This document shows positions 3,288 to 47,587 of a stretch of DNA of 64,000 bases, piece after piece. The stretch lies in sequence record OM386658.1. One strand, given 5' to 3'. Below the pieces are notes generated by a model. The model worked only from the letters and a program-made list of their open reading frames with translations. It was not told where the DNA came from and searched no databases. Each line of letters begins with the position of its first letter. Position 1 is the stretch's first letter. A program made the translations under genes and the position numbers. The DNA comes from Escherichia phage vB_EcoM_ESCO32.

Positions 3288-3764
3288 ATGTCTAAACGTT
3301 TTGGTCGTAATCAAAAAAGAAAGTTAAGTGCTCAACTAGCAGCTTTGCAAAAAGAGGTTAACACTTTACAAAAAAGTGTTTGTGAACTTAAGGAACAAAA
3401 CCAACTTGAAAAAGAGTGTATCCAGCTTACACAGGAAGTTATTGGTGAGTATTTTCCTTCACTAGTTCCTAAGAAGGTGGCTCTTAGGGAAAATCTACCT
3501 TTTACCTTGTCCTTAATGCAAGCAAATGATAGATTCCAAACTGAAACTGATGATTTGATGTTTGCAATGCATCAATTACATGGTTTAGAATATACAGCAC
3601 AAGTGGATAAACTTCGTAACATGTTATATGTGCGGGTAGAAACACCTAAAGGTGAGACAGTAGCTTTTAATTATAATTTCCAACAGCTACCTGATCATAT
3701 TATTGAACAAATTTTAAAACGAGATTTTGTTCCTATGCTTGTTAAACAAATTAAGAGAGGTTGA
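3288..3764 (+). CDS. hypothetical protein with N-terminal coiled-coil-like segment
   Basis: 158 aa; gggggaaat RBS; N-terminal heptad-like sequence (LSAQLAALQKEVNTLQKSVCELKEQNQLEKE). Confidence 0.4.
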   Translation: MSKRFGRNQKRKLSAQLAALQKEVNTLQKSVCELKEQNQLEKECIQLTQEVIGEYFPSLVPKKVALRENLPFTLSLMQANDRFQTETDDLMFAMHQLHGLEYTAQVDKLRNMLYVRVETPKGETVAFNYNFQQLPDHIIEQILKRDFVPMLVKQIKRG

Positions 3765-3765
3765 A

Positions 3766-18190: not shown

Positions 18191-18258
18191 TACTTAACTT
18201 GTGTTATGATGGTGGTACAGAGGTATCACCATTTACTAAAGAATATGGAGGAAAATGA

Positions 18259-19362
18259 ATGTCCAGTCCTTTTATCAGTGCCGTAAAAAGCAAACCGTCT
18301 GAAATGAGTGTATTCACGGCAACAACAGAAAAAAGTAAGTCTTTGTTTGCTCCAAGTGCTATGGATGCAAGCCCTGTATATGCCCCTGCTGTTGCACGAC
18401 CTGTACAAATGCTGCCTCCAATGTCTCGTGAAGAGATTGAACAAGTTGGTGCTGATGCAGGACTTACTCTTCGTAACCTTAATGCTGAAGTGCTTAAACA
18501 CCAACGTTCATCTCAGGGGGATGAAATGAGTGAACGTTTAACTGCACTTATTAAGCAAGCAAAGCAACTTGATCCTAACTCTATTAAACAATCTAAAGGC
18601 TTAGGTAAACTAGTTAAGAAAGTATTAGGTATGAAAGAAGATTTGTTTGGTGAATTTGACACCATCAATAATCGTATTGAAGGTTTGGTAAAGACACTAC
18701 AAACAGATTTGAAAAAAGAAGAAGATTCTTTACGATATCTGCAACGTTTAGAAGAGGCTATTGCAAAATATGCTCTTAGCTTAAACAGGGATATAGAGCT
18801 TCTAACAGCTACTTATGAAAAAGAAGAAGTTCGCCTTAATACACTACCTGAAAATGAAGTAGAAGAACGTCAACGTACTCGTGATACTATGGATCTGCTT
18901 GAAATTCGTATTGCAGACCTGAAAGCCTTGCGTTTACTGTGTGTTCAGATGGGGCCACGTGTACAAAGTATGCAGAAAGTATCTGCAAGTTTGATGCGAT
19001 CAGCCCGTAATATTGTGAATAATGTTATTCCTGCTTACTCTGCAAACTTTTCTATGTATATTGAAAGTCTACGCCAGAAGAAAGCAGCAGATACACAGAA
19101 CAATGTACTGAATGAGTTTAATGCTGCTATTGCAATGGGTAGTGATCTGGCTGCACAAAACCAAATTGAAGCTACACAACTTGCTAATCGTCAAGTATTG
19201 GATATTGAGACATTACGTCGCGATCAAGAAAACTTAGTTAAAATGTTGGAAGAAACTAATCGGATCAACACTGAAGCCCGTGCTGCTCGTATTGATTACA
19301 TTCAGGAAGTGCAATCTCTTGAAGATGGTATGATTCAAACTGTTAAACGTGGTCTACTTTAA
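18259..19362 (+). CDS. TelA/KlaA-like (toxic anion resistance family) protein, putative
   Basis: 367 aa largely alpha-helical protein. The call rests mainly on size, composition and its position between TerC-like and vWA/TerD genes; I cannot confirm the family from motifs alone. Confidence 0.3.
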   Translation: MSSPFISAVKSKPSEMSVFTATTEKSKSLFAPSAMDASPVYAPAVARPVQMLPPMSREEIEQVGADAGLTLRNLNAEVLKHQRSSQGDEMSERLTALIKQAKQLDPNSIKQSKGLGKLVKKVLGMKEDLFGEFDTINNRIEGLVKTLQTDLKKEEDSLRYLQRLEEAIAKYALSLNRDIELLTATYEKEEVRLNTLPENEVEERQRTRDTMDLLEIRIADLKALRLLCVQMGPRVQSMQKVSASLMRSARNIVNNVIPAYSANFSMYIESLRQKKAADTQNNVLNEFNAAIAMGSDLAAQNQIEATQLANRQVLDIETLRRDQENLVKMLEETNRINTEARAARIDYIQEVQSLEDGMIQTVKRGLL

Positions 19363-19375
19363 GGAGAAATATATT

Positions 19376-19582
19376 ATGAATATTAAAATTTACAAACTGT
19401 CTGGTTCTATGATCGCTGTCCAGTACGACAATGAAGATCGTTATGTTCTCCTCCAGGATGCTTGGTTAGATGATCCTAATGTATTTACTGTCCTGCGAGA
19501 ACTACGTTCTGTCTATACCTATTCTTCTAAAGATGGTTTTGATAGTTCAACGATGGAATTGGTAAAAGAGGAGAATGTGTAA
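19376..19582 (+). CDS. hypothetical small protein
   Basis: Start taken at MNIKIY after aaggagaaatatatt RBS. Confidence 0.35.
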   Translation: MNIKIYKLSGSMIAVQYDNEDRYVLLQDAWLDDPNVFTVLRELRSVYTYSSKDGFDSSTMELVKEENV

Positions 19583-19782
19583 TGAATAAAGATATTCACT
19601 TAACTCGTGAAGAATTACAAACCATTATGGAAGATGCTTTCATTGATGGTTGGAAACAAGGTCAAGAGTCAGATTGGTATGATGCCGAAGACTTTTTGTA
19701 TTATCATATGACTGCACCTGTAGACGAGCAAACACACTCTGAAACAACTTTGGCTATAATTGATCTTAAGGCTGGTGTATAA
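19582..19782 (+). CDS. hypothetical small acidic protein
   Basis: 66 aa ORF overlapping the upstream stop (ATGA). Confidence 0.35.
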   Translation: MNKDIHLTREELQTIMEDAFIDGWKQGQESDWYDAEDFLYYHMTAPVDEQTHSETTLAIIDLKAGV

Positions 19783-20345
19783 TGGGATGTTTTAGTTTCT
19801 TGTGCAAAGAATCTGGTAATGCTGCTCTTTCTACCTCTTTCGATGGCTCTCCTTGCTACCTATTTCTTTTGAAAGGTGGTAAAGTTGTTGAAGAGATGTA
19901 TGGCAATTATGATAGCTATGGTAGTGTTTTCTCTAACGAAGAAGATAAACATGGCAATCGTAAAAGATTCAAGTGGTCTATGTCTTGGGAAGAAGTTTGT
20001 AATTTGATGTTCTCTTCCGATCTTGGAGATGGGATTGCTCTGGTATTAGAAGAGCACTTTACAGGCGAGATCCCAACAGAAAGATCTGAAGAAGATCCTA
20101 ACCAGGGTTGGGGTGATGGGGAAGAAGATCCAGATTGCTTCTTCAGCACTGAAAATAATAAATTTAAATGTGTTGACAATCCTTACCACAAAGTGCATAA
20201 TACTTGCATTGAGACAGAAGAAGACTCAAAGCTAGAAATTGAAGATGATTTAGTTGTAACTATCTCTTTAAACGAGTTGCAAAAAATCACTAGAGAGGCT
20301 TTCTATTTAGGTTGGAAAGTAGGTAAAGGAGGAGATAGTGCTTAA
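19782..20345 (+). CDS. hypothetical protein
   Basis: 187 aa ORF, translationally coupled to the upstream gene. Confidence 0.4.
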   Translation: MGCFSFLCKESGNAALSTSFDGSPCYLFLLKGGKVVEEMYGNYDSYGSVFSNEEDKHGNRKRFKWSMSWEEVCNLMFSSDLGDGIALVLEEHFTGEIPTERSEEDPNQGWGDGEEDPDCFFSTENNKFKCVDNPYHKVHNTCIETEEDSKLEIEDDLVVTISLNELQKITREAFYLGWKVGKGGDSA

Positions 20346-20607
20346 ATTTAATATCAAAGACGACAAATCAGATGAACCTAAATGTTTTGGAGAACTTGAC
20401 GTAGGTGATACATTTGTATATTATGTTGCCTATCAAGATTCTGGTTTAGATACATTCAGAAATTTAGTGTTTATTAAGGTTAATACAAACCAAGCAATGT
20501 GTCTGAACGGTTCGCAAAGAGGTCAACTTAGCTGTATTTCGTATGATACAGAAATGGTAGAAGTGGATTTAGAAGTTACTAACATTACACTCAGAAAGGA
20601 GAAATAA
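20338..20607 (+). CDS. hypothetical protein
   Basis: 89 aa, GTG start after aaaggaggagata RBS. Confidence 0.35.
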   Translation: MLKFNIKDDKSDEPKCFGELDVGDTFVYYVAYQDSGLDTFRNLVFIKVNTNQAMCLNGSQRGQLSCISYDTEMVEVDLEVTNITLRKEK

Positions 20608-20608
20608 T

Positions 20609-21403
20609 ATGTCCAATAAAATCAGTCTTAAAAAACGTCAAGAAACTCTTACCGTATCTCTGCGTAAGAAAAAGATTAACGATGTTGTTCTTCGTGTCGG
20701 TAGTGCCTTAGATATTTCGGGTAGTATGTGTGAGCTGTATCGTGATGGCACTGTCAGTGATTTTGTAGGTAAGCTACTGCCGTTTGGTATGAAGTTTGAT
20801 GATAATGCACAGATTGACATGTGGGCTTTCAATAGTTCTTCTTTTGAACTGCCTCCTGCAACGGCTGATGTATATGATGATTATGTCGGCTCTTGTATGT
20901 CTAATGTTTGCATCAATGGTGGTACAGCTTATGCTCCAGTAATGCAAGAGATCTATGATACATACTTCGGTAGTGTACCTATGAAAAATATTACACGCGA
21001 AGTCGTTGAGTATGAAGAAGTTCCGGCTAAGGGTTTCCTTGCTAAACTAACTGGTAAAAAAGAACGTGTAGAAGTTACACGTACTGTTGTAGAACAGGTT
21101 GTAGATACTGATGCACAAGTTGATCGTACTCCTGCAATGATTTTCTTCCAAACTGACGGGGAGAACATGGATACTTCAGCAGTACGTAGTTTGCTGAACA
21201 AACACCGCAACACTCCTGTTTACTGGTTTATGGTTGGTGTAGGTAATGCAAACTTTAAATTCCTGAAAGACTTGGCAAAAGAATACGATAACGTTGATTT
21301 TATCGGTATTGCAGATTTGTCCTTGTCTGACGAAGAACTTTACGATAAACTGCTATCCGAAGAGTTTGGCGAGTGGGTTAAAAAATTTGGAGCAAAAGCG
21401 TAA
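20609..21403 (+). CDS. von Willebrand factor A (vWA) domain protein, TerY-like context
   Basis: MIDAS motif VLRVGSALDISGSM, a GGTAY Thr and a downstream FFQTDGE acidic residue; N-terminus MSNKISLKKRQETLTVSLRKKK echoes the TerD N-terminal repeat. Confidence 0.5.
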   Translation: MSNKISLKKRQETLTVSLRKKKINDVVLRVGSALDISGSMCELYRDGTVSDFVGKLLPFGMKFDDNAQIDMWAFNSSSFELPPATADVYDDYVGSCMSNVCINGGTAYAPVMQEIYDTYFGSVPMKNITREVVEYEEVPAKGFLAKLTGKKERVEVTRTVVEQVVDTDAQVDRTPAMIFFQTDGENMDTSAVRSLLNKHRNTPVYWFMVGVGNANFKFLKDLAKEYDNVDFIGIADLSLSDEELYDKLLSEEFGEWVKKFGAKA

Positions 21404-21410
21404 AAAACGC

Positions 21411-21438
21411 TTGACTTTGTAGAAAAGATTAGTAAAAT
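21411..21438 (+). promoter_or_regulatory. sigma70-like promoter candidate upstream of the TerD-like gene
   Basis: TTGACT (21411-21416), 16 nt spacer, TAAAAT (21433-21438); about 37 nt upstream of the aaaggagataat RBS. Confidence 0.4.
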
Positions 21439-21475
21439 AGACAACGTAAATTAACAACAAAGGAGATAATAAATT

Positions 21476-22072
21476 ATGACTCAGAAAATTTCCCTGAAAA
21501 AAGGTTCTAGCGAAAAAGTTTCTCTGAAAAAGATTGCACCAGCACTGAAACGCATTCGTCTGGAATTCTCTTGGAAATCTAACGAAAAACTGGATCTGGA
21601 TGTTAGTGCTCTGATTTGCCGACACAATGCATCTGGTCTGCCGGAACTGTTGTCTCCTCGCCACCTGGTATGCTACGCACAGAAATTTGATCCTGAACGT
21701 TCTACTTTTGCAGGTGAAGATGTTCGTGACGGTGTAGGACAAATGGAGCAGATTGATGTTACACTGGATAATATCTCTGCTGAAGCACAGGAAATTGCAT
21801 TCGTAATCACTATTGATGACGAAACGGGTAAGAAACGCCTTGGTCACGCTACCGAAGGTTTCCTTAAAATCTTCGATGATGAACGTAACGTTGAACTGCT
21901 GGATTTTGACTTCTTGGCTCCAGAACTTGCAGGTAATACCATTTGCCACGTTGCCTCCCTGGTGCGGGAAGATAGCGAATGGAAACTGAAAGCATATGGT
22001 GTAGGTAAAGCTGGACTTGACATTTATGATGTAGTTAAAGCGTTTGGCGCTGGCGACGATTGGTTCGAGTAA
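21476..22072 (+). CDS. TerD-domain protein (tellurite resistance / stress protein family)
   Basis: MTQKISLKKGSSEKVSLKK N-terminal repeat, LDLDVSALIC, acidic clusters (GEDVRDGVG, ITIDDETG) and the general layout of a 190-200 aa TerD domain. Confidence 0.65.
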   Translation: MTQKISLKKGSSEKVSLKKIAPALKRIRLEFSWKSNEKLDLDVSALICRHNASGLPELLSPRHLVCYAQKFDPERSTFAGEDVRDGVGQMEQIDVTLDNISAEAQEIAFVITIDDETGKKRLGHATEGFLKIFDDERNVELLDFDFLAPELAGNTICHVASLVREDSEWKLKAYGVGKAGLDIYDVVKAFGAGDDWFE

Positions 22073-22124: not shown

Positions 22125-22727
22125 ATGGGTATTACTTTAGAAGGTCAAAAACTTATTCGCAGCGGTAATTTTCTTGTGGATATTGACAACAATGAAGATT
22201 ATGCTTTAGAAGTTAGTGATGTACTGTTTAATGCTTTGCAGTCTGGTTTCAATTTTGAAGTTTATGAAGTAATCCGTGGAACTAAACTCAGAGAAACCCT
22301 TGGATCAACTAGTGATGTTTATTCTGCGATCTGGCAATATTTCGGGTTAATGGATGGTAAGACATACCTTACTGATAGTTATTCTGAAGATGTTGTTTAT
22401 CTTGATATGGAAGAGTTTCGTCGTCTGTTCAAAAGTGAAGAAAATGAAGAAGAGGGTGAACTTTTTGAAGGAATTACTCTCGAAGGTAATGTTGAAATTG
22501 TGTATAAAGCAGGAAAAACATTCCACTTGCGTGAAAACGGTAAAGCAAAAGTTGATTTTGTAAACAAGACAGTAACAACTGAACATAATTATCTTAAAGA
22601 TGGTCAACCAGCTTTTGAACGTGTAACAATTAAATTTAAAGTATTGTCTGCACTAGTTACGGATCAAGAACGTATTGATTTTGTAGAAGATGGTGTAGTA
22701 ACTCATACAAAGGTTTACAACATCTAA
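22125..22727 (+). CDS. hypothetical protein
   Basis: 200 aa ORF with agaggagaaaaca RBS. Confidence 0.4.
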   Translation: MGITLEGQKLIRSGNFLVDIDNNEDYALEVSDVLFNALQSGFNFEVYEVIRGTKLRETLGSTSDVYSAIWQYFGLMDGKTYLTDSYSEDVVYLDMEEFRRLFKSEENEEEGELFEGITLEGNVEIVYKAGKTFHLRENGKAKVDFVNKTVTTEHNYLKDGQPAFERVTIKFKVLSALVTDQERIDFVEDGVVTHTKVYNI

Positions 22728-22770
22728 CAGGGTGTAAGAGGGGGGATAATCCCCCTCCACTTGCAAAACA

Positions 22771-22799
22771 GCCTCTTCTGTGTTACAATAAAAGTTCGT
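22771..22799 (+). promoter_or_regulatory. sigma70-like promoter candidate
   Basis: TTGCAA (22771-22776), 17 nt spacer, TACAAT (22794-22799); preceded by a G/C-run hairpin at 22748-22768. Confidence 0.35.
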
Positions 22800-22820
22800 T
22801 TAACAAAATAGGAGGCAAGT

Positions 22821-23330
22821 TTGTCAATAAAAACCTTTGTCGCAATTGCGTTACTATCCTTAACTGCTTTTACATTTACACCTGTTGTGGCGCAAGCCGA
22901 AGCTGCAAACGTAAAAACTGCTAAAGTAGTTCACAAGTGTACAAAGCGTGATAGTAAAGAAAATCTATTAGCTTGTGCAATCTATGCAGAAAGTCGTAAT
23001 CAAGGAAAGCGCGGTATGGCTGCTGTTGGTAATGTAGTATTGAATAGGGCTAGAGATTCATATTTCCCTGATACTATAAAAGAAGTTTTGTTTCAAAAAG
23101 GACAATTCTCTTACACAAAGACATTCAACGTTATGGAACGTGATAAGTGGAAGGAAGCTAAGACTATAGCAGAACGTCTACTTTATCTCGATACGCATTT
23201 TCCAGAATTACGAATTGCATTAGATATTACAAAAGGAGCATTATACTTTAAAAAATCTACAATAAGAGCACACTGGGAAAAAGATATGGTTCTAGTGTAC
23301 CGCTACAAAGAACATCAATTCTATCGCTAA
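22821..23330 (+). CDS. secreted cell wall hydrolase (SleB/CwlJ-like Hydrolase_2 domain), putative
   Basis: Signal-peptide-like N-terminus ending AQA; core CAIYAESRNQGKRGMAAVGNVVLNRARDSYFPDTIKEVLFQKGQFSYT resembles the SleB-type fold. TTG start after ataggagg. Confidence 0.45.
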   Translation: MSIKTFVAIALLSLTAFTFTPVVAQAEAANVKTAKVVHKCTKRDSKENLLACAIYAESRNQGKRGMAAVGNVVLNRARDSYFPDTIKEVLFQKGQFSYTKTFNVMERDKWKEAKTIAERLLYLDTHFPELRIALDITKGALYFKKSTIRAHWEKDMVLVYRYKEHQFYR

Positions 23331-23340
23331 GGAGATATAG

Positions 23341-23619
23341 ATGAAAGATGGCGTTATCGTTGCAAGTTATCTTGTTATTGGTCTTACAGAAGAGGATGTA
23401 CATTACATTAGGAAACATTTAGAACAGTTTGCAATGATGTTCATCGAAGACGAAGACAATATGGATGTTTATTCAATTGAAATGATCAATGATAACGTCT
23501 ATCCTTGTATAGCTTTACGAGTCGATGAAGATGTTTGGGAACGTTTTTCACGTAGTCACGATAATGTTGAATGTTCTATGGTTATGTCACAAAGCAACAT
23601 ACTGGGAGTGTTACACTGA
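23341..23619 (+). CDS. hypothetical protein
   Basis: 92 aa ORF with aaggagatatag RBS. Confidence 0.35.
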   Translation: MKDGVIVASYLVIGLTEEDVHYIRKHLEQFAMMFIEDEDNMDVYSIEMINDNVYPCIALRVDEDVWERFSRSHDNVECSMVMSQSNILGVLH

Positions 23620-24078: not shown

Positions 24079-24642
24079 ATGATATTTCACATAACTCCCT
24101 ATCTTTCTGGAGATATTGGAAAAGGTATCAATGACACAATAAGTGTCTTACCAGAAGATAGTTGGATTTGCCTAAGAGACATTGATACAATGTTTCTTCT
24201 TCCAGAACAACCTGCTTGGCTGGAATCAATAGTCCGTTCAAATCCTGATTTTGATGTTCTTGGTGCATCTTGTAATAGATTGGGATCAACATATCAATTA
24301 TTTAATAATGAAAGAAGTGAAGATCCAAATATATTACACCACATTGAGATTGCAAAAAGAGCACATCTAGAATGGGGAAACTCAATAGAGGAAGTACCTA
24401 CAGATGCTATCTTAGCAGGATTCTTTCTTCTCTTTCGTAAGAGCCTGTGGAATGAAATCCCTTTTGAGGAAAGATCAATACAGTTTGATATAATTTTCTC
24501 TAAAGCATTGCACGCTAACAATAAAAGGCTAGGTTTACTACGTGGGTTATATTTATTTCACACATACCGTTTAGGTAATGATGATCCTAGAAAAGCTATT
24601 TCACACCTTTTACATTGTCAAGACATGAATAAAATTATTTAA
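24079..24642 (+). CDS. hypothetical protein, possible glycosyltransferase-like
   Basis: 187 aa with acggagggag RBS; contains DID (LRDIDTMF), a possible DxD motif. Weak. Confidence 0.25.
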   Translation: MIFHITPYLSGDIGKGINDTISVLPEDSWICLRDIDTMFLLPEQPAWLESIVRSNPDFDVLGASCNRLGSTYQLFNNERSEDPNILHHIEIAKRAHLEWGNSIEEVPTDAILAGFFLLFRKSLWNEIPFEERSIQFDIIFSKALHANNKRLGLLRGLYLFHTYRLGNDDPRKAISHLLHCQDMNKII

Positions 24643-24651
24643 GGAGTTATT

Positions 24652-25338
24652 TTGGAAAATACAAAAATTGGTGTTGGTGTTATTACTGTAGGTAAGCGTC
24701 CTCTTAAAGATTATCTTGTGACTGATCCTAATGCTACTTTTGTTGTACAGTATGATCGGGAACGAAAAGGTGTTGCATATGCTCGTAATGAACTGATGAA
24801 AAAGTTTTATGATGAAGGGTATGATTACTGGTTTATTTTTGATGATGATTGCTATCCTGTTGTTCAAGGTTGGGAAACATATTTTGTAAAACAAGCGAAG
24901 GAAAATGGTTGGGATTTCTTTGGTATGCCTGAATACTTTAAAGATAAAGTAAAAGGTATTGAAGGGGAAGTGGTTATTTGGGAACTAGGTATGTGCCAGT
25001 TTGGTATGTATTCCCGTGCAGTTATTGAGAAAGCTGGCTATTTCCGCTCATACACCCACGGTTATGGATATGAAGATGCAGAGTGGATTCATCGCGTTCC
25101 ACTGGCAGGTTTGAACCGAGGTATTCAAGGCGTGCCATGTCCTATTCGAATTATGGCGTTTATCCATCCTGATGATGTATTTGGAGACAATCCTTTACCT
25201 TTTGCGAATCTGTCAAAAGAAGAGAAAGAACAGGGTATTGGTGTAAACTGGGAACAATATAAACAATCCCTGGAGGATCTTCGCAATGGTAAAACTTTTA
25301 TCTCTTATGAGGAGGCTCAAAAATATGGTAAATCCTAA
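24652..25338 (+). CDS. glycosyltransferase (GT-A fold, DxD type), putative
   Basis: N-terminal GVGVITVGKRP and YWFIFDDDCYPV (DxD-like acidic motif after a hydrophobic strand); TTG start after aaggag. Confidence 0.4.
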   Translation: MENTKIGVGVITVGKRPLKDYLVTDPNATFVVQYDRERKGVAYARNELMKKFYDEGYDYWFIFDDDCYPVVQGWETYFVKQAKENGWDFFGMPEYFKDKVKGIEGEVVIWELGMCQFGMYSRAVIEKAGYFRSYTHGYGYEDAEWIHRVPLAGLNRGIQGVPCPIRIMAFIHPDDVFGDNPLPFANLSKEEKEQGIGVNWEQYKQSLEDLRNGKTFISYEEAQKYGKS

Positions 25339-26299
25339 TACTCCTGTACTTAAGTGTGATAATAAGTTAGGCAGTGGTTGTGATTACCATCGTATTGTAA
25401 TGCCATTTGCTGGAAATACGTTTAAACCTAAGAAAGACGTTTTAGTTTTTAATAGAGTGTATTCTCGTGGAGCAGACGAGGTTAAACGCCTGAAGGCACA
25501 AGGTGTTAAGATTATTGTTGATTTAGATGACTTTTATTCACTTAATCCTGAACATTATATGGCTGGCGTATTTACTAATCATTCAAAGACTATTGTAGAG
25601 ATGGTTAAGTTAGCAGATGTTGTTACTGTAACAACAGAATACCTAGCTTACAAAATTCGTCATTTAAATCGTAATGTTGTCGTAATTAGAAACGCACTAC
25701 CTTACGACGAAGGTCAATTTACTTTGACAAAAGACCGTAATTCTGACACGCCTATTATCTGGGCTGGAGGAGCAAGCCACGAGCCTGATTTATCTCTTGT
25801 AGCTAATACATTTGATGATACACTATTGACAATTGCAGGGTATGAAGTGTATCCTTCTGCACCTGTTGGAAATAACAGTCAGTATCTAACTACTGCGGAG
25901 TGGGTTAAAGTAAAACGTAAAATTCCAAATGCACAGTATAAACCAGCTATTAAAAATTTAGGTGAGTATATGTCTGTGTATGACGGTCACAGTATTGCAA
26001 TTGCTCCCCTGGTAGATAATGACTTCAACAACTGTAAAAGCAATTTGAAGATTTTGGAAGCAGGTGCAAAGGGTCTTCCTATTATCTGTTCTCCTGTGCT
26101 GCCGTACTTCAATCCGGTAGATGCAAAGGCTGTTATCTATGCAGACTCTAAAGCATCTTGGCATTATGAAGTTGTCAAGCTAATGAGGAACCCTAGATAC
26201 ACAGAAGATCGTGGTATGATGCTTGCAGAACACGTTCGTCTTAATTATAATCTTGCAGATGCCAATGAACTGCGTCGTCAAGTTATTGAAAGTCTTTAA
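25325..26299 (+). CDS. glycosyltransferase-like protein, paralog A
   Basis: Shares blocks with the next gene (DYHRIVMPF / DFHRIILPY; ISIAPLVDNDFNNCKSNLKILEAGAKGLPIICSP / ISIAPLVNNHFNNAKSNLKILEAGAKGLPLVCSP); the EAGAKGLP block resembles GT-B C-terminal motifs. Confidence 0.4.
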   Translation: MVNPNTPVLKCDNKLGSGCDYHRIVMPFAGNTFKPKKDVLVFNRVYSRGADEVKRLKAQGVKIIVDLDDFYSLNPEHYMAGVFTNHSKTIVEMVKLADVVTVTTEYLAYKIRHLNRNVVVIRNALPYDEGQFTLTKDRNSDTPIIWAGGASHEPDLSLVANTFDDTLLTIAGYEVYPSAPVGNNSQYLTTAEWVKVKRKIPNAQYKPAIKNLGEYMSVYDGHSIAIAPLVDNDFNNCKSNLKILEAGAKGLPIICSPVLPYFNPVDAKAVIYADSKASWHYEVVKLMRNPRYTEDRGMMLAEHVRLNYNLADANELRRQVIESL

Positions 26300-26310
26300 C
26301 AAGGAGTTAT

Positions 26311-27255
26311 ATGCCTAATATTATTCTTGACACACGCGGAAATGAAAAGTATAGTGTATGTGATTTTCATAGAATCATTTTGCCATATAAACGCAAACTG
26401 ACCATTAATCCTAAGCATAATATTTTTGTGTTCAATGGAGTACCAACACGTGGAAAGCCAGGTTTCCTGGCTCTTAAACAACTTGGGTTTAAATTGGTAA
26501 TGGATCTGGATGATTCTTTAATTATTCCTGAAGGGCATATGCTTGAAGGATTATTTGAAAATCAAATCCGAGATGACCTAAAATGGTTCCTTGAAAGAAG
26601 CGATCTTGTAACTACAACAACTCCAGCATTAAAGGTTGAATTAAGCCAATACAATGATAATGTACATATTGTGCCTAACGGACTACCTTTTGATGAAGGA
26701 CAGTTTGTTCTTACGAAAGATCGTTATTCTAAAAGTCCACTGGTTTGGGCGGGAAGTGAAACACATAAACATGATTTAGCAATTCTTCCTGCTTTTGGTA
26801 AAGAGTTAACTTTATGCGGATTTCGTAGAGATCACGAAGAGTTAAGTAGTGCTCAATGGTTGCAAATTAAAGAAGATATTCAACCAGATTGTGTTTATGA
26901 AGGTATTCGTCCTTATGAGTGTTATATGGAAGCATACGATGGTCATCAAATCTCCATAGCTCCATTAGTAAATAATCATTTTAATAATGCCAAAAGTAAT
27001 TTAAAAATTCTTGAAGCTGGTGCTAAAGGTTTGCCACTCGTTTGTTCGCCACGGGAGAACTATTATACTGAAGAATTTAAAGATCTAATCTTCTTTGCTG
27101 ATTCAGTTAAAGAGTGGAAAGATATTGTAGAATACTTAATCGAATCTCCTGACGTTTGTATTGAGAAGGGATTGGCTCTTGCTAAGTATGTAAGAGATAA
27201 CTACAATATTGATGATTTAAATGAAACCCGCAGACTGCTTATCGAGGATTTATAA
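26311..27255 (+). CDS. glycosyltransferase-like protein, paralog B
   Basis: Tandem diverged duplicate of 25325-26299; aaggagttat RBS. Confidence 0.4.
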   Translation: MPNIILDTRGNEKYSVCDFHRIILPYKRKLTINPKHNIFVFNGVPTRGKPGFLALKQLGFKLVMDLDDSLIIPEGHMLEGLFENQIRDDLKWFLERSDLVTTTTPALKVELSQYNDNVHIVPNGLPFDEGQFVLTKDRYSKSPLVWAGSETHKHDLAILPAFGKELTLCGFRRDHEELSSAQWLQIKEDIQPDCVYEGIRPYECYMEAYDGHQISIAPLVNNHFNNAKSNLKILEAGAKGLPLVCSPRENYYTEEFKDLIFFADSVKEWKDIVEYLIESPDVCIEKGLALAKYVRDNYNIDDLNETRRLLIEDL

Positions 27256-29805: not shown

Positions 29806-32800
29806 ATGGGAGCTTTTACTTTCGACATTGAAAGTAACAACTTGCTTAATGACGAAAGTGTAGATTACTTGGCAAGTCCATATCGTTTAAAAGATAGTTT
29901 TGCAATGCACTGTATTGTGTGCGAAAGTCATGATACTGGAGAGATTATTGCTTTCCATGATGGTGATAAATATCTTTTCGATGGTCGTCCGTATGTTGAG
30001 ACTGACGGAAAGTATGAATACCGACTGGAGGAATATGAGCATTTAGAATATACCCATTTCCCTCTTAAAGATTTTCCTGATTTTGTAAATGGAACAGGTA
30101 AATTTAAAGGTAATTCAAACTATAAAATTACCAAAGTAGTTGGACATAACATCATTAACTTTGACTTACTGGCAATTAAATTATTTTTTAAACTCAACTA
30201 CAGTATTAAGTACAATACTTGGGGTAATAGTAACATTGAAATTTGTGATACTATGATCTTAAGTAAGACACTAAACCCTGATCGCTTCGGTGGTCATAGT
30301 CTGGCAGAGTTATCTAAGAAGGCTGGAGGGGATGTTAAAATTGATTTTAGAAAAAACATTCCTGAAACTGAAAGATTTAAAACATTTGCAGCAGATATGC
30401 TGTATTACTGTATTTACGATAACAAAGCTAACACCGCAGTGTTCCGTTATTTGATGGAAGAGTGGGGTGATTATAATAAGTGGTCTGAACCATTTAACTT
30501 AGAACAACGTGTAGCTGATATTATTACACGTCAAGAGCACCGTGGCTTTGCTTTCAATATGAAACAAGCAGAAGATAATATTCGTGATCTGGATGCTCGA
30601 ATGGAAGCATGTCGTTTAGAGGCAGAACCTGTGCTACCTCCTAAACCTGCTACTAAAGGTTATTTGAAATCATTCATTCCACCTAAACTACAGTTTAAAA
30701 AGAATGGTGAACCTTCAAGTAACATGATAAAGTTTGCAGAGAAACATTCTGGTGAACTTGTACAAAAAGAAGATGGTTGGTGGCTATTTGCATTAGGTAA
30801 AGAGTTTAAACTACCTATTCCAGCAGAAGAACCTATTTGTGATCCTACAGTACCTGCTACTTTAGACGACACTACACATATTAAAAACTGGTTAGTTGGT
30901 TTAGGTTGGAGTCCATCTGAATATAAAGATAAAGATATCACTCTTAAATCTGGCACTAAGATTAAGAAAGATGAAGCACAGATGGAGAAAGCTATTCGTG
31001 ACTATGTTGATCAAACGTTAGCATCTAATTTCTGCCAGGACAGATGTGATCATCTGGAGTGCACACCAGAAACTTTGGAATGGAAACTAAGAGATCGTAT
31101 TGCTAAAGCTAAAGGTCGTGGTGTTAAAGTGCTTACTAACCCTTCCTTTACAAAAGGGCAAGAGAAAGATATTTGTCCTAACTTGGAAGCACTAGGTGAA
31201 AAGTTTCCTTATGCTACGCAGATTGTGCAGTATCTTACGTATAAACACCGTAGGAACTCTATTCTAGGGGGTGGTGCTGATTGGGAAGAAGATGAAGAGG
31301 ATTATGATAAAGGTTATCTGGCAGCAGTAAGGGCTGATGGTCGTATACCAACTCCTGCTGCAACGTGTGATGCAGCTACGTCTCGTATGAAACATAGGTT
31401 AGTAGCAAATATCCCACGTGTAACATCTCTGTACGGATATGAAATGCGTAACTTATTTGGTGTAGAAGTTCCAAAATACTTCCAAATTGGTTATGATTTT
31501 GATTCTCTTGAGGCAAAAATAGAATCACACTACTGTGTACCTATGGATGCACAAGCACTAACCCGTAAAGGTTGGGTTGGTTATCACGATCTACAAGAAG
31601 GGGATGAAATCTTAGGATATAACCCAGAAACAGGACTTAAAGAATGGACTAAAGTAAAAGGTAAGGTCTTCTATAAAAATAGTAAGACGTTTGAGATTAA
31701 AGGAAAATCCCATACTTACCGTGCAACAGCAGATCACCGTTGGTATGTTAATACCCGTAGTAAAGGGAATACTTATGTGCCTAAAGTCAGAACAACTGCC
31801 GAGCTTTGCACAGGAGATAATATTATTTGTAATGCTCCATTTAACATGGAACAAGATCAGGTAAATAGTTTAACTTCTGTTCAACAAGGTAAATGGGATG
31901 TTCCGTGGGTAGAGCGTGTAGTTAATATGTCTCATGCCGAGCGTGTAGCTTTCTTGGAAGGTTTCTTGATTGCAGATGGTTACTGGCATGAACATAAACA
32001 AAAACCTGTTTGGCGTTGGGCGCAGAACCCAGGTGAACTTTTTGAAGCAGCTTTAACTGCCTCGTACCTGGTGCATGGAGGCAATATCTCTGTAGCTTTC
32101 AATACAAAAGAGCAGAAAGTAAAAGTGGCAACATTGGCTAACCGCTCTCACATTCCTGTTCAAAGTTTGACTATTGAAGAGTGGGGTGTAGAGGATGTTT
32201 GGTGTCCACAAACAGAACTTGGTACGTGGGTCATGCGTCAGAAAGACTGCATTACCATCACAGGAAACTGTTGGCGGTACGAGCAGGAACCACACGAATA
32301 TTGTAATGCTCTATTATTGGAAAAACCTAATGATGTTCATACAATGATGGCTCGACGTATTTCTGACACTATTGGTCGTAAGTTTGAACGAAGCCCTGCT
32401 AAATCTGTTAAGTATGGTATTACTTATGGTGCTCAAGCTGCAAAAGTAGCAAAAACTATAGGTAGTGATATGTATACCGGACAGCTTGTATACGATGCTT
32501 TCTGGGAAGCTGCAAAACCTCTTGCGCTTCTTAAAGAACGTCTGCATGACTTTTGGGTTAAAACAGGTAAGAAATACATTCTGGGTATTGATGGTAGGAA
32601 AGTACCTACACGATCTGCACACGCAATACTTAACTCTCTGTTCCAGAGTGGTGGTGTTATTTGTGCAAAAAGAGCAATGGTTATCTACGACGATCTTATC
32701 GAAGAAGAAGGATTAGCTGTTGACTTTTTTGTTGATGACTGGAAAAATAAGTCATTCGTTCAACAAATGATTGCATATCACGATGAAGCACAGCTTGAAG

Positions 32801-33120
32801 TAACTCGTGATCTGGTGCATTTTAAATGGTTCTCTAAAGAATCTTTAGGTTGGACTCAAGTTGATGATCCAGAAGAACAAAAGAAAATTGATAAAGAATG
32901 TTTGGATAAAGTTAATGCCTGGAAAGAAGAGGAAGAGAAACGTACTGGCAAGATTTGGGCTAACGTACATGAATCTCCGAAAGGTGGTTGGTTTACAGCC
33001 TACAGTCGTGCTGGAGAATTAGCATCTATCGCTGTTAATAAAGCTGGTGAGTATTACAATCTTAATGTACCTCTCACTGCTGGTTACGATGTTGGTAACT
33101 CATGGGCCAGTTGTCATTAG
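29806..33120 (+). CDS. family A DNA polymerase (T7 gp5-like) with 3'-5' exonuclease domain, interrupted by an intein
   Basis: Exo I FTFDIESNNL; RFGGHSLAEL; motif A region GYDFDSLEAKIESHY; motif B RSPAKSVKYGITYGAQ; ILGIDGRKVPTRSAHAILNSLFQSGG; C-terminal GYDVGNSWASCH. These parallel T7 gp5 as I recall it. Confidence 0.85.
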   Translation: MGAFTFDIESNNLLNDESVDYLASPYRLKDSFAMHCIVCESHDTGEIIAFHDGDKYLFDGRPYVETDGKYEYRLEEYEHLEYTHFPLKDFPDFVNGTGKFKGNSNYKITKVVGHNIINFDLLAIKLFFKLNYSIKYNTWGNSNIEICDTMILSKTLNPDRFGGHSLAELSKKAGGDVKIDFRKNIPETERFKTFAADMLYYCIYDNKANTAVFRYLMEEWGDYNKWSEPFNLEQRVADIITRQEHRGFAFNMKQAEDNIRDLDARMEACRLEAEPVLPPKPATKGYLKSFIPPKLQFKKNGEPSSNMIKFAEKHSGELVQKEDGWWLFALGKEFKLPIPAEEPICDPTVPATLDDTTHIKNWLVGLGWSPSEYKDKDITLKSGTKIKKDEAQMEKAIRDYVDQTLASNFCQDRCDHLECTPETLEWKLRDRIAKAKGRGVKVLTNPSFTKGQEKDICPNLEALGEKFPYATQIVQYLTYKHRRNSILGGGADWEEDEEDYDKGYLAAVRADGRIPTPAATCDAATSRMKHRLVANIPRVTSLYGYEMRNLFGVEVPKYFQIGYDFDSLEAKIESHYCVPMDAQALTRKGWVGYHDLQEGDEILGYNPETGLKEWTKVKGKVFYKNSKTFEIKGKSHTYRATADHRWYVNTRSKGNTYVPKVRTTAELCTGDNIICNAPFNMEQDQVNSLTSVQQGKWDVPWVERVVNMSHAERVAFLEGFLIADGYWHEHKQKPVWRWAQNPGELFEAALTASYLVHGGNISVAFNTKEQKVKVATLANRSHIPVQSLTIEEWGVEDVWCPQTELGTWVMRQKDCITITGNCWRYEQEPHEYCNALLLEKPNDVHTMMARRISDTIGRKFERSPAKSVKYGITYGAQAAKVAKTIGSDMYTGQLVYDAFWEAAKPLALLKERLHDFWVKTGKKYILGIDGRKVPTRSAHAILNSLFQSGGVICAKRAMVIYDDLIEEEGLAVDFFVDDWKNKSFVQQMIAYHDEAQLEVTRDLVHFKWFSKESLGWTQVDDPEEQKKIDKECLDKVNAWKEEEEKRTGKIWANVHESPKGGWFTAYSRAGELASIAVNKAGEYYNLNVPLTAGYDVGNSWASCH
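31534..32268 (+). mobile_element. intein (about 245 aa) after polymerase motif A, with LAGLIDADG-like motif
   Basis: Starts CVPMDAQALTRKGWVGYHDLQEGDEIL (block A-like); TADHRW (block B TxxH); AFLEGFLIADGYW (LAGLIDADG-like); ends ...CITITGN followed by +1 Cys. The region between motif A and the HTMMA block is about 245 aa longer than the T7 gp5 equivalent. Confidence 0.55.
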
Positions 33121-36936: not shown

Positions 36937-36960
36937 AGGAGCCTATTGGCTCCTTTTTGT
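36937..36960. terminator. bidirectional intrinsic terminator at the convergent strand switch
   Basis: aggagcc-tatt-ggctcct flanked by A-rich sequence upstream and ttttgttt downstream; sits between the converging gene ends at 36925 (+) and 36961 (-). Confidence 0.5.
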
Positions 36961-38847
36961 TTATGTAACATTGACTGTAAATCTGACAAGAGGTGATAAC
37001 ACGTCATTATCAGCATCATAGTGTGCAACATCAAACACTGCTGTACCTGCTGCAAACCCGTATTGTTCAACCTGATCTGCATAAGTAAATGTGTAAGTGT
37101 TAGTATCAAGAGTTTGTTCTGTAAGAATTGCTGCTGTGAGGACGTTTACATTTCGGAAGTAATGTTTGGTATATCCTGCTGGTTCCCAAGAAATAATTGC
37201 ATCTTGGTTAGCTTGTCTTACAGCGGCTCCTCCTGTTGGAACAGACATATCAACCCAAACAGGTGGTGTTGATGTTAAATCTGTACCGTCTGCTGCTGAT
37301 TTAGCAAGTTTTGTAGCTGCTGTTTGATATACAGAAGAAATATAATGGATACGACCATCAATACCTTCTTCATAAACATAACCACTGTAACGTTCAGCAC
37401 CATCTACCCAAGAACCAATGATAACATCATCACGTGCTGTAGAGATGGTTCTTTGTACATTTCTGTACTTCTGCCAATCCACACCATTAACTTCTACACC
37501 ATATAAATAAGAACGTCCTAGGATCTGCCAAACAATTTTTGCTTGAGAAGCAGGAACTATTGTACGCATCTTATCAAAGATAGCTATCGTAGCATCATGG
37601 TAACGTGTAGTGTTACTGTACCTACCTGCAACAGTCGAAGATGCTGATACAGCATCATTTTCACCTTGTCCCCAAATAATTGCTTTAACCTTACTTGCAT
37701 AAGGTGTGACTTTAGTGATAAAGTTAGTTAAGCATGGCCCATCTGCTGTGTTATCCAGATCATACCAGTAGTTGTCTGGTGTACCTGTTCCAGCTTTATC
37801 GTCAGCATATTTATCTGCTGCTGATGATCCAGAAGCTGTATTTAACGGAAGAACTTCAGCATTTGCTAAACCACGTTGCGTAGCATATGCATTACGGGTT
37901 GTTGTGCTACTCATTACTGCTTTATTTGCACCAGATAATTCTGTAAAGTGTGCATTTACGTTATCTTGTCCAGCAAAGACAATAACTTCTTTAATGAACG
38001 AATCATCTGTAGCTATTGAGTTATTAAAGATAACGGCTGCTGCTTTGGTGCTCTTAACGCTAATTTTAAGGTATGTTGGAGCAAACCCATAAAGAGGAAT
38101 AGAGTCAGAGATATCAAAGTAAGCGTAAGTATTCGTGGTTGTTGTAGTCCACTGAACACTATTATCACTTAAATCTAATACTTCTACAGTATAAGTATCA
38201 CCGTCTAGTGGATCAGTTACATCCCAAGCAACACGAACGTCTCCATAACTGTTTGCCACGGCTGTTACATTAGAAATAACAGGAATAGCATTAACACCTA
38301 AATAAGAACTATCAGAGGCCACAACTGTTCCTTGATACGTTGCAGTACAACCTATACGGCAATTGCCATCTTTAAGAGCAGTTATTAATCCTGTAGGGCT
38401 TACAGTAGCTACTTCTGGATCTGTTGTGGTGTATGTAATTACCATATCTGGAAGGTCTTTAGCACCTTCTGGACTGATTGTAGCAACCAACTGTTGAGTA
38501 GTGCCTACATCCATAGCCGATAGACTTTCAGTGTACACACTTAATTCTGAAGCATAACCACCAGATTGATCAGTTAAGACAGCACCTAAATTATTTTTAG
38601 CTGTCATTATTGCATCAAAACCACCTTCAGCAACAAACTCCATCATACCATTATTATCTATAACCATTTTGGTATTATCTGAAGATGAAAAAGCTATATC
38701 AAATAACGCACCATCTTCGGGTGTAACTGTATATGTCAGTTGTTTTTTACTACCAACTATTGCAATGCCAATAGAGGAAGTGGTTATAGATGTAGCTGTT
38801 ACTACTGAAGCTGATGTTGTTGACATAAATAAAGGAATAGGATACAT
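36961..38847 (-). CDS. tail fibre/decoration protein with two Big_2-like Ig domains and an SGNH/sialate-O-acetylesterase-like (DUF303-like) domain
   Basis: Two Big_2-like segments (IGIAIVGSKKQLTYTVTPEDG...; MDVGTTQQLVATISPEG...TTTDPEVATVSPTGLITALKDGNCRIGCTAT); esterase-like VFAGQDNV and IIWGQGENDA (compare GQSNM and WxQGExD). Confidence 0.45.
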   Translation of the reverse strand: MYPIPLFMSTTSASVVTATSITTSSIGIAIVGSKKQLTYTVTPEDGALFDIAFSSSDNTKMVIDNNGMMEFVAEGGFDAIMTAKNNLGAVLTDQSGGYASELSVYTESLSAMDVGTTQQLVATISPEGAKDLPDMVITYTTTDPEVATVSPTGLITALKDGNCRIGCTATYQGTVVASDSSYLGVNAIPVISNVTAVANSYGDVRVAWDVTDPLDGDTYTVEVLDLSDNSVQWTTTTTNTYAYFDISDSIPLYGFAPTYLKISVKSTKAAAVIFNNSIATDDSFIKEVIVFAGQDNVNAHFTELSGANKAVMSSTTTRNAYATQRGLANAEVLPLNTASGSSAADKYADDKAGTGTPDNYWYDLDNTADGPCLTNFITKVTPYASKVKAIIWGQGENDAVSASSTVAGRYSNTTRYHDATIAIFDKMRTIVPASQAKIVWQILGRSYLYGVEVNGVDWQKYRNVQRTISTARDDVIIGSWVDGAERYSGYVYEEGIDGRIHYISSVYQTAATKLAKSAADGTDLTSTPPVWVDMSVPTGGAAVRQANQDAIISWEPAGYTKHYFRNVNVLTAAILTEQTLDTNTYTFTYADQVEQYGFAAGTAVFDVAHYDADNDVLSPLVRFTVNVT

Positions 38848-43303: not shown

Positions 43304-43644
43304 TAATTTTTGTCCTTACTTTGTGTGCGCTTTGTAATCTCCTCTAGCATTAATTGAACAGGAGCATTTTTTAAATCCATTATTTTTTCAATCTTCTGTT
43401 CTAAGGCAGTATTATTTGCCATTAATGTAGAGTTGATCTGGTTAAGCATTTGAGCAAGTTCTGCTTTGGTAGCATAAGTGGATTCAACAAACACCAACTT
43501 CTTTTCTAGTTCGCGGTATTTGTCTTCCATTTTATCCAAATCACTTGCCATATCATCTATCTTCTGTTTGAAGACCACCCAGATTACGCCAATAAGAGGG
43601 ATAATCGCCTCTTTAGCGATATCCCATACTTCTGTTAGCTCCAT
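43303..43644 (-). CDS. hypothetical membrane-anchored coiled-coil protein
   Basis: 113 aa; N-terminal hydrophobic segment IIPLIGVIWVVF followed by charged heptad-like sequence. Confidence 0.3.
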   Translation of the reverse strand: MELTEVWDIAKEAIIPLIGVIWVVFKQKIDDMASDLDKMEDKYRELEKKLVFVESTYATKAELAQMLNQINSTLMANNTALEQKIEKIMDLKNAPVQLMLEEITKRTQSKDKN

Positions 43645-45843: not shown

Positions 45844-47331
45844 TTAGACTCCGTACTCGTAGGAAATATTATCAAGGTCAAAGGATGGTACAACATTGTA
45901 CGCTGGAGTGATATCTCCCTCATTATATTTACTGTCATCCTCAGTATTAAGTTTAACATAAACACGGAGAGAAGTCAAGCGTCCGAACGCAAGTGCAGAA
46001 TAAATTACACCTTTTATCTGATCGTTAGTTACTGTTGACCCTAACTCAAAATAAGCCTGTAGATTTGAAAGAGCAGAAACGATATTATCTCTTTCTGTTG
46101 TACTTAACACACTACCATTGCCAGTTTGATATACTAGTTTAAGTGAATATTCAGCATTGTCACCAGGAGAAAAACGAATTACTTCTTGACCGCCATCTTC
46201 TGTTACGATAGTAATTGCTGTTGTACCATAGGTTAAGGTGTTAATAGGCTTAGTATTATAAATAACCTGTGCAACTTCTTCTGCTGTACCACCATACACA
46301 ATAGTCTGGAATGTCATAGCTGGAGCATGTTCCTGATCATGTAATGTAGGGTTATCATAAATCTTAACCTTTGTCACACCATCTGTCAGTAGCAGAGCTT
46401 TAACAATAGCAGCACGAGTAGCAGCATTAGCTTCATCCATATTATCATTGAAACGAGAACGGAATTCTGCATCTGTTTCAACATCTGTGCCTGGAGAGAA
46501 TGGATAGAAGTTACCTGTATCTAAAAAGCCTGTAAACGTTGAAGAAATACCTGTGATACTTTCTGTACCTACTGGATTATAACCAACGTCTGAACACGTA
46601 ACTGGAATTTCACTCCATTTTGTACCAATTGCAATAGATGCATAAAATTTCACTGGTGTTACTAGACCTATTGGGTTAACATTATCTTCTGGATTATAAC
46701 CCATGTAAACATTACTAGCATCATTCCATACTAAAGCACGATCTGTTGTTGATACGTTAGCTTTAATGAAATTCGTGAGATCTAAAATAAAGTTTGTATT
46801 GCTAGGACTTAGTGTTTTACTGTTAAGACCACCATCAATAGCACTTTGAATGTAGAAAGTAATAGAAGTTTCACCAGAAGCTGTTGCGTTTGCTTTAGAA
46901 ATGGTATACGCTCCAATCTTAGCATTCAACATTGTTGGTGCACTGACATAATATGTCAAATCGTTATCGGCATTAAAATAAACATCTGTGCTTAGCTCAT
47001 AAGTCCAAGCTGCCTTATTGTTAGATTTAACATAAGCATAACCACTACCAGCAGAAGCTGCCTTACGATAAAAACCTCTTTTAGAGAAAATTTCATCAAG
47101 GTAAATACCTTCTGCACCATCTAAGGTTTGGGTATTGTAAACACCTTGCATACCTTCCCAAAGGGTGTAATCTGTATATGCAATAATACGAAACAGTTGA
47201 CCAAAGACAGTATCTTCAGATGTAGCTGTATCTGCACCGAAAGTGTTTTTCAATGCTGTCATATAATTATTTAGAATATCATCAAACGTTGGAATGACAA
47301 AACCAGCATCTGTTAAACCATAATCTGCCAT
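45844..47331 (-). CDS. hypothetical baseplate/tail structural protein
   Basis: 495 aa ORF, tightly packed (ATGA overlap with the upstream 81 aa gene). Confidence 0.35.
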   Translation of the reverse strand: MADYGLTDAGFVIPTFDDILNNYMTALKNTFGADTATSEDTVFGQLFRIIAYTDYTLWEGMQGVYNTQTLDGAEGIYLDEIFSKRGFYRKAASAGSGYAYVKSNNKAAWTYELSTDVYFNADNDLTYYVSAPTMLNAKIGAYTISKANATASGETSITFYIQSAIDGGLNSKTLSPSNTNFILDLTNFIKANVSTTDRALVWNDASNVYMGYNPEDNVNPIGLVTPVKFYASIAIGTKWSEIPVTCSDVGYNPVGTESITGISSTFTGFLDTGNFYPFSPGTDVETDAEFRSRFNDNMDEANAATRAAIVKALLLTDGVTKVKIYDNPTLHDQEHAPAMTFQTIVYGGTAEEVAQVIYNTKPINTLTYGTTAITIVTEDGGQEVIRFSPGDNAEYSLKLVYQTGNGSVLSTTERDNIVSALSNLQAYFELGSTVTNDQIKGVIYSALAFGRLTSLRVYVKLNTEDDSKYNEGDITPAYNVVPSFDLDNISYEYGV

Positions 47332-47576
47332 TAGTTATCCTCCTTATCAGGGGCAGGTGATCTGCCCCAACGTAAATCTATTAAATTCTTCATTAGTCTG
47401 GATGGTGTGATCATAAAAACAAAAGCCCAGCCCATCCATTCAGGAATTTCTTTATCAATTCCCAAATAAATAAACATACTGGACATAACAATCATACCAA
47501 TAGCATTCCAAACTTTAGTAGAACTGACTTTATTATCAGGATATGTACAAAACATACCTATTAAAAATTTTCTCAT
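47331..47576 (-). CDS. small two-helix membrane protein (hypothetical)
   Basis: 81 aa with two hydrophobic segments (AIGMIVMSSMFIYLGI; WMGWAFVFMITP) and a charged C-terminus. Confidence 0.3.
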   Translation of the reverse strand: MRKFLIGMFCTYPDNKVSSTKVWNAIGMIVMSSMFIYLGIDKEIPEWMGWAFVFMITPSRLMKNLIDLRWGRSPAPDKEDN

Positions 47577-47587
47577 ACTAGAGATCC

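Follow-up and report, generated by a model that had tools for sequence, protein, structure and literature searches.

Lys44 of the oenophage fOg44 is a muralytic enzyme that carries a cleavable signal peptide and is exported without a holin. It is the sole endolysin of fOg44, its gene adjoins a holin gene, and it belongs to another enzyme family and acts on a Gram-positive host. In the Gram-negative periplasm, Sec-dependent muralytic delivery is provided by SAR endolysins together with pinholins (P1 Lyz; R21/S21 of phage 21), the SAR domains being uncleaved, longer and Gly/Ala-rich. The phage hydrolase described here differs from the SAR type in having an apparently cleavable signal and no adjacent pinholin gene. 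In T4, the lysis genes e, t and rz/rz1 are dispersed, and to our knowledge this phage has no Hydrolase_2 protein. The endolysin of T5 is the lys product, encoded beside the holin.

Closer relatives of the present locus have also been described. According to the BME3 paper, the genus possesses two endolysins, one of which is SleB-like, belongs to the replication module and is not flanked by a holin gene; for the holin, the same paper lists distantly encoded candidates with 61 and 81 residues, and the spanins are likewise encoded separately. The genome announcement of iGC_PHA_EC001 reports the same two lytic domains, and the AKFV33 paper is among those that already describe an exported second wall enzyme with a separate endolysin. 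More than 50 near-identical genomes already label the gene 'putative cell wall hydrolase' or 'endolysin'. The finding followed up here is correct and was already known. Its interest is functional, in that several families of large virulent coliphages retain a Sec-exported SleB-type enzyme in their early/replication modules beside a normal endolysin.

The DNA analysed (the window) is a 64,000-nucleotide stretch of Escherichia phage vB_EcoM_ESCO32. Nucleotide comparison of the 4-kb stretch around the hydrolase gene identified its source as a phi92-like myovirus of the genus Justusliebigvirus (Stephanstirmvirinae). Over these 4 kb, the phages outra and ESCO8 share 99.7% identity with the window, and about 50 other phi92-like myoviruses share 98-99%. 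In the 147-kb BME3 genome, the segment colinear with the window is 19,025-83,801, so that less than half of the genome was visible to the initial reading of this DNA. The features of the hydrolase locus are the following:

22738..22757, plus strand: GC-rich hairpin GAGGGGG-gataat-CCCCCTC, directly 3' of the upstream gene (read from the sequence)
22761..22789, plus strand: sigma-70-like promoter TTGCAA-17 nt-TACAAT with a TG extended -10 (consensus match only, 9/12)
22810..22815, plus strand: Shine-Dalgarno sequence AGGAGG, 5 nt ahead of the TTG start (read from the sequence)
22821..23330, plus strand: coding sequence of 169 aa plus stop, predicted exported SleB/CwlJ-type cell wall hydrolase (ORF list, Pfam, PHROG, homologues, fold)
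22821..22898, plus strand: predicted Sec (signal peptidase I) signal peptide, residues 1-26 (clade conservation, heuristic, break in the helix of the AF2 model)
22899..23327, plus strand: predicted mature periplasmic enzyme, residues 27-169 (Pfam, conservation, AF2 model, fold match)
22989..22991, plus strand: GAA codon of Glu57, the predicted catalytic glutamate (invariant in 91/91; aligns with the Glu of SleB YGESRGE)

The hydrolase gene is real and is the counterpart of phi92 gp170, with which its product is 98% identical. Its reading frame opens with TTG and follows an intergenic region of its own, which holds both the hairpin and the promoter-like site, the latter 32 nt 5' of the start codon. 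The hairpin is without a trailing T-run and was not called by the terminator scan; it may serve as a transcript boundary or stabiliser. The "early" status of the gene would follow from its gene context and its sigma-70-like promoter. As decisive evidence of early timing, the promoter was rejected: the promoter scan returned 68 sites against 53 +/- 6 expected, which is barely above chance, and the tail gene at 56561-56675 is preceded by a similar or better site. Because sigma-70-like sites also precede tail genes, the promoter leaves the timing of hydrolase expression unfixed.

The assignment to the SleB/CwlJ family is supported by profile, sequence and structure comparisons. The Pfam profile PF07486 (Hydrolase_2) matched residues 61-168 over nearly its full length (positions 2-100 of 100) with 72.5 bits against a cut-off of 27 (E=4.7e-20), and PHROG 938, labelled 'endolysin', was matched at E=1e-20. 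In a phmmer search against PDB sequences, only the SleB catalytic domains 4F55/4FET were matched, in an alignment spanning the catalytic motif, which reads YAESRNQ in the phage hydrolase and YGESRGE in SleB of B. cereus and B. anthracis. An AlphaFold (AF2) model generated from an alignment of 91 diverse sequences reached a mean pLDDT of 92.2, and about 97-98 in the catalytic domain; it was used in place of a model built on 21 close homologues alone, which was discarded at a pLDDT of 58.6. A fold search with the retained model gave 4F55 and 4FET as the only significant PDB matches (probability 1.0, rmsd 2.6-2.9 A, target-normalised TM 0.73-0.77). The SleB-fold catalytic domain spans approximately residues 38-169.

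Across the 91 diverse family members, Glu57 and Arg76 are the sole invariant positions (91/91). The cysteines follow a different pattern: C40 and C52 are invariant among the close homologues, and in the wider family the cysteine pairs covary and are mutually exclusive, with C49-C87 present in 56 of the 91 sequences and C40-C52 in 25, the phage hydrolase included. Such covariation would fit disulfides made in the periplasm.

The enzyme shares with Bacillus SleB/CwlJ (PDB 4F55, 4FET) the catalytic fold and the catalytic glutamate motif, and its single-domain build is CwlJ-like. It is not a SleB orthologue, because it scored only 51 bits against the SleB equivalog TIGR02869 (cut-off 236.5; only profile positions 81-199 matched) and has no peptidoglycan-binding domain, Pfam finding Hydrolase_2 only. 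Bacillus SleB, in contrast, has an N-terminal peptidoglycan-binding domain; the phage hydrolase lacks this as well as a YpeB-type partner, and its substrate would be ordinary Gram-negative murein instead of the muramic-lactam cortex degraded by SleB. Given the SleB/CwlJ fold, the phage enzyme is probably a lytic transglycosylase.

The N-terminus, MSIKTFVAIALLSLTAFTFTPVVAQA/EAANVK (the slash marking predicted cleavage, here and below), has the layout of a signal peptide. An n-region with K4 is followed by a hydrophobic core of about 15 residues (F6-T20), by Pro21 and by the sites VVA, AQA and AEA. The heuristic placed cleavage sites after residues 16, 24, 26 and 28; cleavage at AQA/EA, after A26, appears most likely from the sequence, with A24 and A28 as alternatives. 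In the AF2 model, a helix covers residues 3-18 and is broken at Pro21. The signal peptide is kept in 20/20 close homologues, among which Pro21 is invariant. A hydrophobic N-terminus was found in 83 of the 91 diverse family members, and 77 also have a (-3,-1) site by a simple cleavable-signal heuristic. A hydrophobic segment at the N-terminus was present in 134 of 152 sequences, a set made up of the 150 top representatives found by exhaustively searching 1.8 billion proteins, together with two additional close homologues. Divergent homologues carry export signals too, such as …LSLPVVA/AP in rV5, …FNSHA/TY in a T5-like phage and …APALA/KE in CB7. Export driven by such a signal would make peptidoglycan reachable without a holin. 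The sequence-only reading had described a gene at 22821-23330 encoding a protein with a SleB/CwlJ-type hydrolase core and a signal-peptide-like N-terminus, and each of these descriptions was borne out, the reading frame exactly and the core by the Pfam profile search.

The surroundings of the gene contain no obvious partner. Upstream lies a Ter-type cluster (TerC, TerD, vWA-TerF, phosphoribosyltransferase, phosphatase), and downstream are four glycosyltransferase genes followed by primase/helicase and DNA polymerase. No membrane-protein or lipoprotein gene was found within about 6 kb, the flanking reading frames being without TM segments, and no TM-encoding reading frame of at least 20 aa that could be a coupled holin overlaps or flanks the gene. 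Over this distance, the gene thus has no holin or spanin as a neighbour, in agreement with the sequence-only reading. Its further statement that the two-helix membrane protein at 47331-47576 is the only holin-like candidate was incorrect, as small membrane proteins are also encoded at 45-251, 14956-15162 and 16520-16726. Two of the four carry a holin-type label in BME3:

14956..15162, plus strand: 68-aa protein with 2-3 TM segments, holin candidate, labelled 'holin' in BME3 (PHROG 16065, a family of unknown function; unlinked to the hydrolase gene)
47331..47576, minus strand: 81-aa membrane protein, holin candidate, in the baseplate/tailspike block (PHROG 1322 'membrane protein'; 'membrane protein-holin' in BME3)

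The canonical lysis genes lie elsewhere in the genome. A T4-E-like lysozyme and Rz/Rz1 spanins are absent from the 64-kb window, but relatives encode both. In BME3 and its relatives, a 166-aa protein (MLRFDEGL…DTEGYWTVGIGH) is a full-length counterpart of T4 lysozyme E, alignable from one terminus to the other (E ~1e-52), and has its catalytic residues intact; ESCO8 also carries this orthologue. At 95% identity or above, 55 phage records contain the T4 E orthologue and 54 contain the SleB-like hydrolase; in the 60-80% identity tier the respective figures are 71 and 77. These matching counts indicate that both genes are core to the subfamily. An i-spanin/o-spanin (Rz/Rz1) pair adjoins the large terminase in the relatives and matches the Rz-like PHROGs 4297 and 1267; it has been listed as a spanin family common to phi92 and phAPEC8 (Kongari et al. 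2018). The phi92-like group therefore resembles T4 in having an E-type lysozyme with Rz/Rz1 encoded apart from it. Its lysis genes are scattered, as in T4, so the absence of a cassette is normal for such phages.

Because relatives encode a T4 E orthologue and Rz/Rz1, the hydrolase would be a second, exported muralytic enzyme and not the sole endolysin. The earlier suggestion of a Sec-exported endolysin is retained in part: Sec export and the SleB-type fold stand, while a role as principal endolysin is weakened by the lysozyme and spanins encoded elsewhere. The search for lysis genes beyond the window, which had been proposed at the same time, recovered the lysozyme and the spanins in relatives, dispersed and not as a cassette.

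A total of 1,149 phage records contain a homologue of the hydrolase. The same gene is represented by phi92 gp170 and its orthologues in Justusliebigvirus/Phapecoctavirus (BME3 WWY66307, ALITA WWP17728), at 96-99% amino acid identity in 54 records and at 60-80% in 77 more, and it occupies the same site between the Ter cluster and the glycosyltransferases. These orthologues show no material difference from the window's gene, although some are labelled 'putative cell wall hydrolase', others 'endolysin' or 'hypothetical protein'. Members of the Vequintavirinae (rV5, CB7_83, CR3_087) and T5-like phages (AKFV33 ORF81, bas33_0077) have proteins with a similar Hydrolase_2 core and signal peptide, encoded in an early/replication module and co-occurring with a separate canonical endolysin, but identity to the phage hydrolase is only 33-41%. 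The T5-like homologues use the C49-C87 pair, whereas the phage hydrolase uses C40-C52. The rV5 gene lies between those for a MoxR ATPase and rIIA and overlaps rIIA, an overlap that the window does not show; in a T5-like phage the gene is near a recombination exonuclease and tRNA genes, and in PAK_P5 it lies among genes for ligase, helicase and dCMP deaminase. Certrevirus has, in addition, a third, variable endolysin-type enzyme. The hydrolase thus appears to be a conserved second muralytic enzyme of phi92-, rV5- and T5-like phages.

Activity of the hydrolase in the Gram-negative periplasm is plausible by analogy, since expression of the CB7 homologue proved toxic to E. coli (CB7 paper, data not shown there) and T6EC3, a type VI secretion effector with the SleB fold, makes E. 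coli cells round up and burst, an effect abolished by a Glu-to-Gln change at its catalytic residue. T6EC3 resembles the phage hydrolase in fold and in acting in the E. coli periplasm, but it is delivered by a type VI system, has an immunity protein and is encoded by a non-phage gene.

Taken together, the evidence favours an accessory role in lysis combined with holin-independent action on periplasmic peptidoglycan. In our main reading, to which we assign a probability of roughly 0.6, the hydrolase is an exported accessory muralytic enzyme that most likely pre-weakens the sacculus, and the T4-E-type lysozyme is the principal endolysin. From the features described above, we infer signal cleavage, lytic transglycosylase chemistry, the disulfide, the expression timing and the physiological role as follows. 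Sec would export the hydrolase and signal peptidase I would cleave it at about Ala26/Glu27, releasing a soluble SleB-fold domain of approximately 143 residues into the periplasm, where a C40-C52 disulfide would stabilise it. With Glu57 as the catalytic acid, the enzyme would cleave glycan strands. The sacculus would be nicked and weakened from the periplasmic side during the latent period, so that lysis would be fast and complete once the holin fires. Principal lysis itself would be carried out by the cytoplasmic T4-E-type lysozyme, a holin and the Rz/Rz1 spanins.

A wall hydrolase exported long before lysis should harm the host, which speaks against the accessory reading; no inhibitor or other control mechanism was found. 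The downstream 92-aa reading frame at 23341-23619, considered as a partner or inhibitor, was rejected, as its product has no signal peptide, TM segment or informative family (PHROG 16257).

The first alternative, possible but rather unlikely in our view, is that the hydrolase performs a periplasmic job other than lysis and that lysis proceeds independently of it. Such a job could be sacculus remodelling in the latent period, a block to division or superinfection, the feeding of anhydromuropeptides into recycling, or the making of space for an envelope structure. This would agree with the location of the gene in early/replication modules in all four phage groups examined, never among lysis or late genes, with its own sigma-70-like promoter, and with the complete canonical lysis equipment encoded elsewhere. 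RNA-seq data from a single time point, 20 min and thus roughly midway to lysis, show transcription of the T5-like homologue bas33_0077. Gene position is, however, weak evidence of timing or role, because the holin and lysozyme genes of T5 also lie in its 'early' region. Enzymes with the SleB fold are moreover lytic or toxic in the E. coli periplasm, and there is no partner, substrate or phenotype to suggest any particular non-lytic job.

It is less probable still, and in our estimate quite unlikely, that the hydrolase is the principal endolysin, delivered by Sec in the manner of fOg44 Lys44 and held until depolarisation, with the T4-E-like lysozyme redundant or serving another role. Many GenBank/RefSeq records call it an 'endolysin', in line with PHROG 938, but these labels stem from automatic annotation. 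According to the CB7 paper, Stephanstirmvirinae and Vequintavirinae both retain the SleB-like gene, whereas their 'canonical' endolysin is replaced from one genus to another; on this basis, the SleB-like enzyme could equally be the essential one, and the toxicity of the CB7 homologue upon expression is in keeping with this. Within the genus of the window, however, the T4 lysozyme orthologue is intact and equally conserved, and T5-like phages possess the exported enzyme in addition to an adjacent holin-lysozyme pair that is separate from the SleB-like gene.

In CB7, the end of the SleB-like gene is overlapped by the gene for CB7_82, a 65-aa protein with two TM segments that the CB7 authors propose to be a class II holin. 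This would argue for a principal endolysin, but the hydrolase gene of the window has no coupled holin-like gene, and searches for a CB7_82 homologue in the window and in the genome of BME3 found none (best E = 0.13-0.47), which makes the coupling of holin and hydrolase specific to the CB7 lineage. In CB7 itself, the overlap resembles a pair of holin and exported endolysin and would favour a primary lysis role there, contrary to the accessory reading.

We consider it very unlikely that the enzyme is a SAR endolysin, whose uncleaved N-terminal segment would tether it in inactive form to the inner membrane until a pinholin depolarises the latter. The hydrophobic segment is fairly rich in Ala/Ser/Thr (8 of 19 residues), the two TM segments of CB7_82 are pinholin-like, and the PAK_P5 homologue has a longer, anchor-like N-terminus without an obvious A-x-A site. 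Against this, the core of the window's enzyme is short and ends at the invariant Pro21, beyond which the heuristic places A-x-A sites; on sequence grounds, these features favour a cleaved signal over a SAR anchor. The segment is also devoid of Cys, so that disulfide caging of the P1-Lyz type is not possible. In the rV5 and T5-like homologues the signals are shorter still, only 19-20 residues overall, and of the textbook cleavable kind, and the predictor used by the CB7 authors called a signal peptide in their SleB-like homologue. Finally, although a second muralytic enzyme for entry is frequent in phages, a virion-associated lysin that breaches the wall at DNA injection was rejected as having a negligible chance of being correct, as the Sec signal routes the protein away from the cytoplasm, where virions are assembled, the gene lies in a replication/accessory module outside the structural module, and the SleB-like homologue is absent from the PA5oct virion proteome.

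At a broader level, we tentatively raise the possibility that exported SleB-type lytic transglycosylases form a distinct, widespread class of early/middle periplasmic effectors of large virulent phages of Gram-negative bacteria, with a job other than classical endolysis. Such a class would span phi92-, rV5-, T5- and PAK_P-like phages and more than 1,000 genomes. Its members could serve as a timer or fail-safe for lysis that needs no holin, or could remodel the wall so as to control superinfection, division or envelope structure, and their activity would have to be restrained by some mechanism. Phages of the phi92, rV5 and T5 types able to grow on E. coli K-12 are available in the BASEL collection, which makes the role of the enzyme directly testable. 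The 'endolysin' label in databases also has a practical side, as enzybiotic screens may pick up the hydrolase on that basis.

Two covarying, mutually exclusive cysteine pairs were identified in a family-wide alignment of 91 diverse exported Hydrolase_2 (PF07486) proteins, numbered on the 169-aa hydrolase of the window: C49-C87, present in 56 of the 91 sequences, and C40-C52, present in 25. This pattern suggests that the pairs form alternative disulfides, subclade by subclade.

The hydrolase gene (22821-23330, + strand) lies immediately downstream of a phage-borne Ter-type stress cluster (12713-22072, + strand), which encodes a HAD hydrolase, a phosphoribosyltransferase, a phosphatase and three Ter-type proteins:
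15503-16480, + strand, TerC
20609-21403, + strand, vWA-TerF-like protein
21476-22072, + strand, TerD

Shortly downstream of the hydrolase gene stand four consecutive glycosyltransferase genes (24079-27255, + strand). A dTDP-rhamnose pathway is also present in relatives, at a genome location other than that of the glycosyltransferase genes.

Two further genes in the window encode an i-spanin-like protein and a likely lipoprotein:
43303-43644, - strand, 113-aa protein within the tail-fibre block, labelled 'lipoprotein' in relatives
16698-17303, + strand, 201-aa protein with a lipobox-like LLVGC followed by Asp-Asp

The 113-aa protein carries an N-terminal transmembrane segment, with the rest coiled-coil-like; this predicted architecture is i-spanin-like despite the label used in relatives, and the protein matches the Rz-like PHROG 739 weakly (E=5e-4). 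The lipobox-like motif and the Asp-Asp after it mark the 201-aa protein as a probable lipoprotein, which the inner membrane may retain; a Pfam search assigned it to no family.

In Pectobacterium phage CB7 (Certrevirus), a gene for a two-TM protein, proposed in the CB7 paper as a class II holin in Certrevirus, overlaps the SleB-like gene at the latter's stop codon:
3519-3716 of the CB7 sequence (L008), CB7_82, 65 aa

No homologue of CB7_82 was found in the phi92-like genome, searched as the window together with its colinear relative BME3.

The free-standing T4 lysozyme E orthologue occurs in BME3 and in many RefSeq records:
22575-23075 of the BME3 sequence (L004), T4 lysozyme E orthologue, 166 aa

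A higher score against PHROG 430 than against the endolysin PHROG 7 explains why it is widely mislabelled 'baseplate hub subunit and tail lysozyme' in these records.

Comparison with BME3 also revealed extra in-frame segments in two ORFs, the UvrD/Rep helicase ORF (3727-6540, + strand; 937 aa versus 578 aa in BME3) and the family A DNA polymerase ORF (29806-33120, + strand; 1104 aa versus 859 aa):
about 4522-5593, + strand, extra segment of the helicase
about 31536-32267, + strand, extra segment of the DNA polymerase, about 245 aa

The helicase segment is probably an intein, given its matches to Intein_splicing (E=7e-8) and Hint (E=2e-6), both under the Pfam thresholds. The polymerase segment returned zero matches in a Pfam search; it may represent either an intein or an insertion of the homing-endonuclease type.

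The tailspike cassettes differ from those of BME3 at two points in the window, 36958-36991 and 47576-47608, where the BME3 sequence is longer by about 1 kb and about 2.1 kb, respectively. The gene for the 81-aa membrane protein (47331-47576) borders the second of these variable slots.
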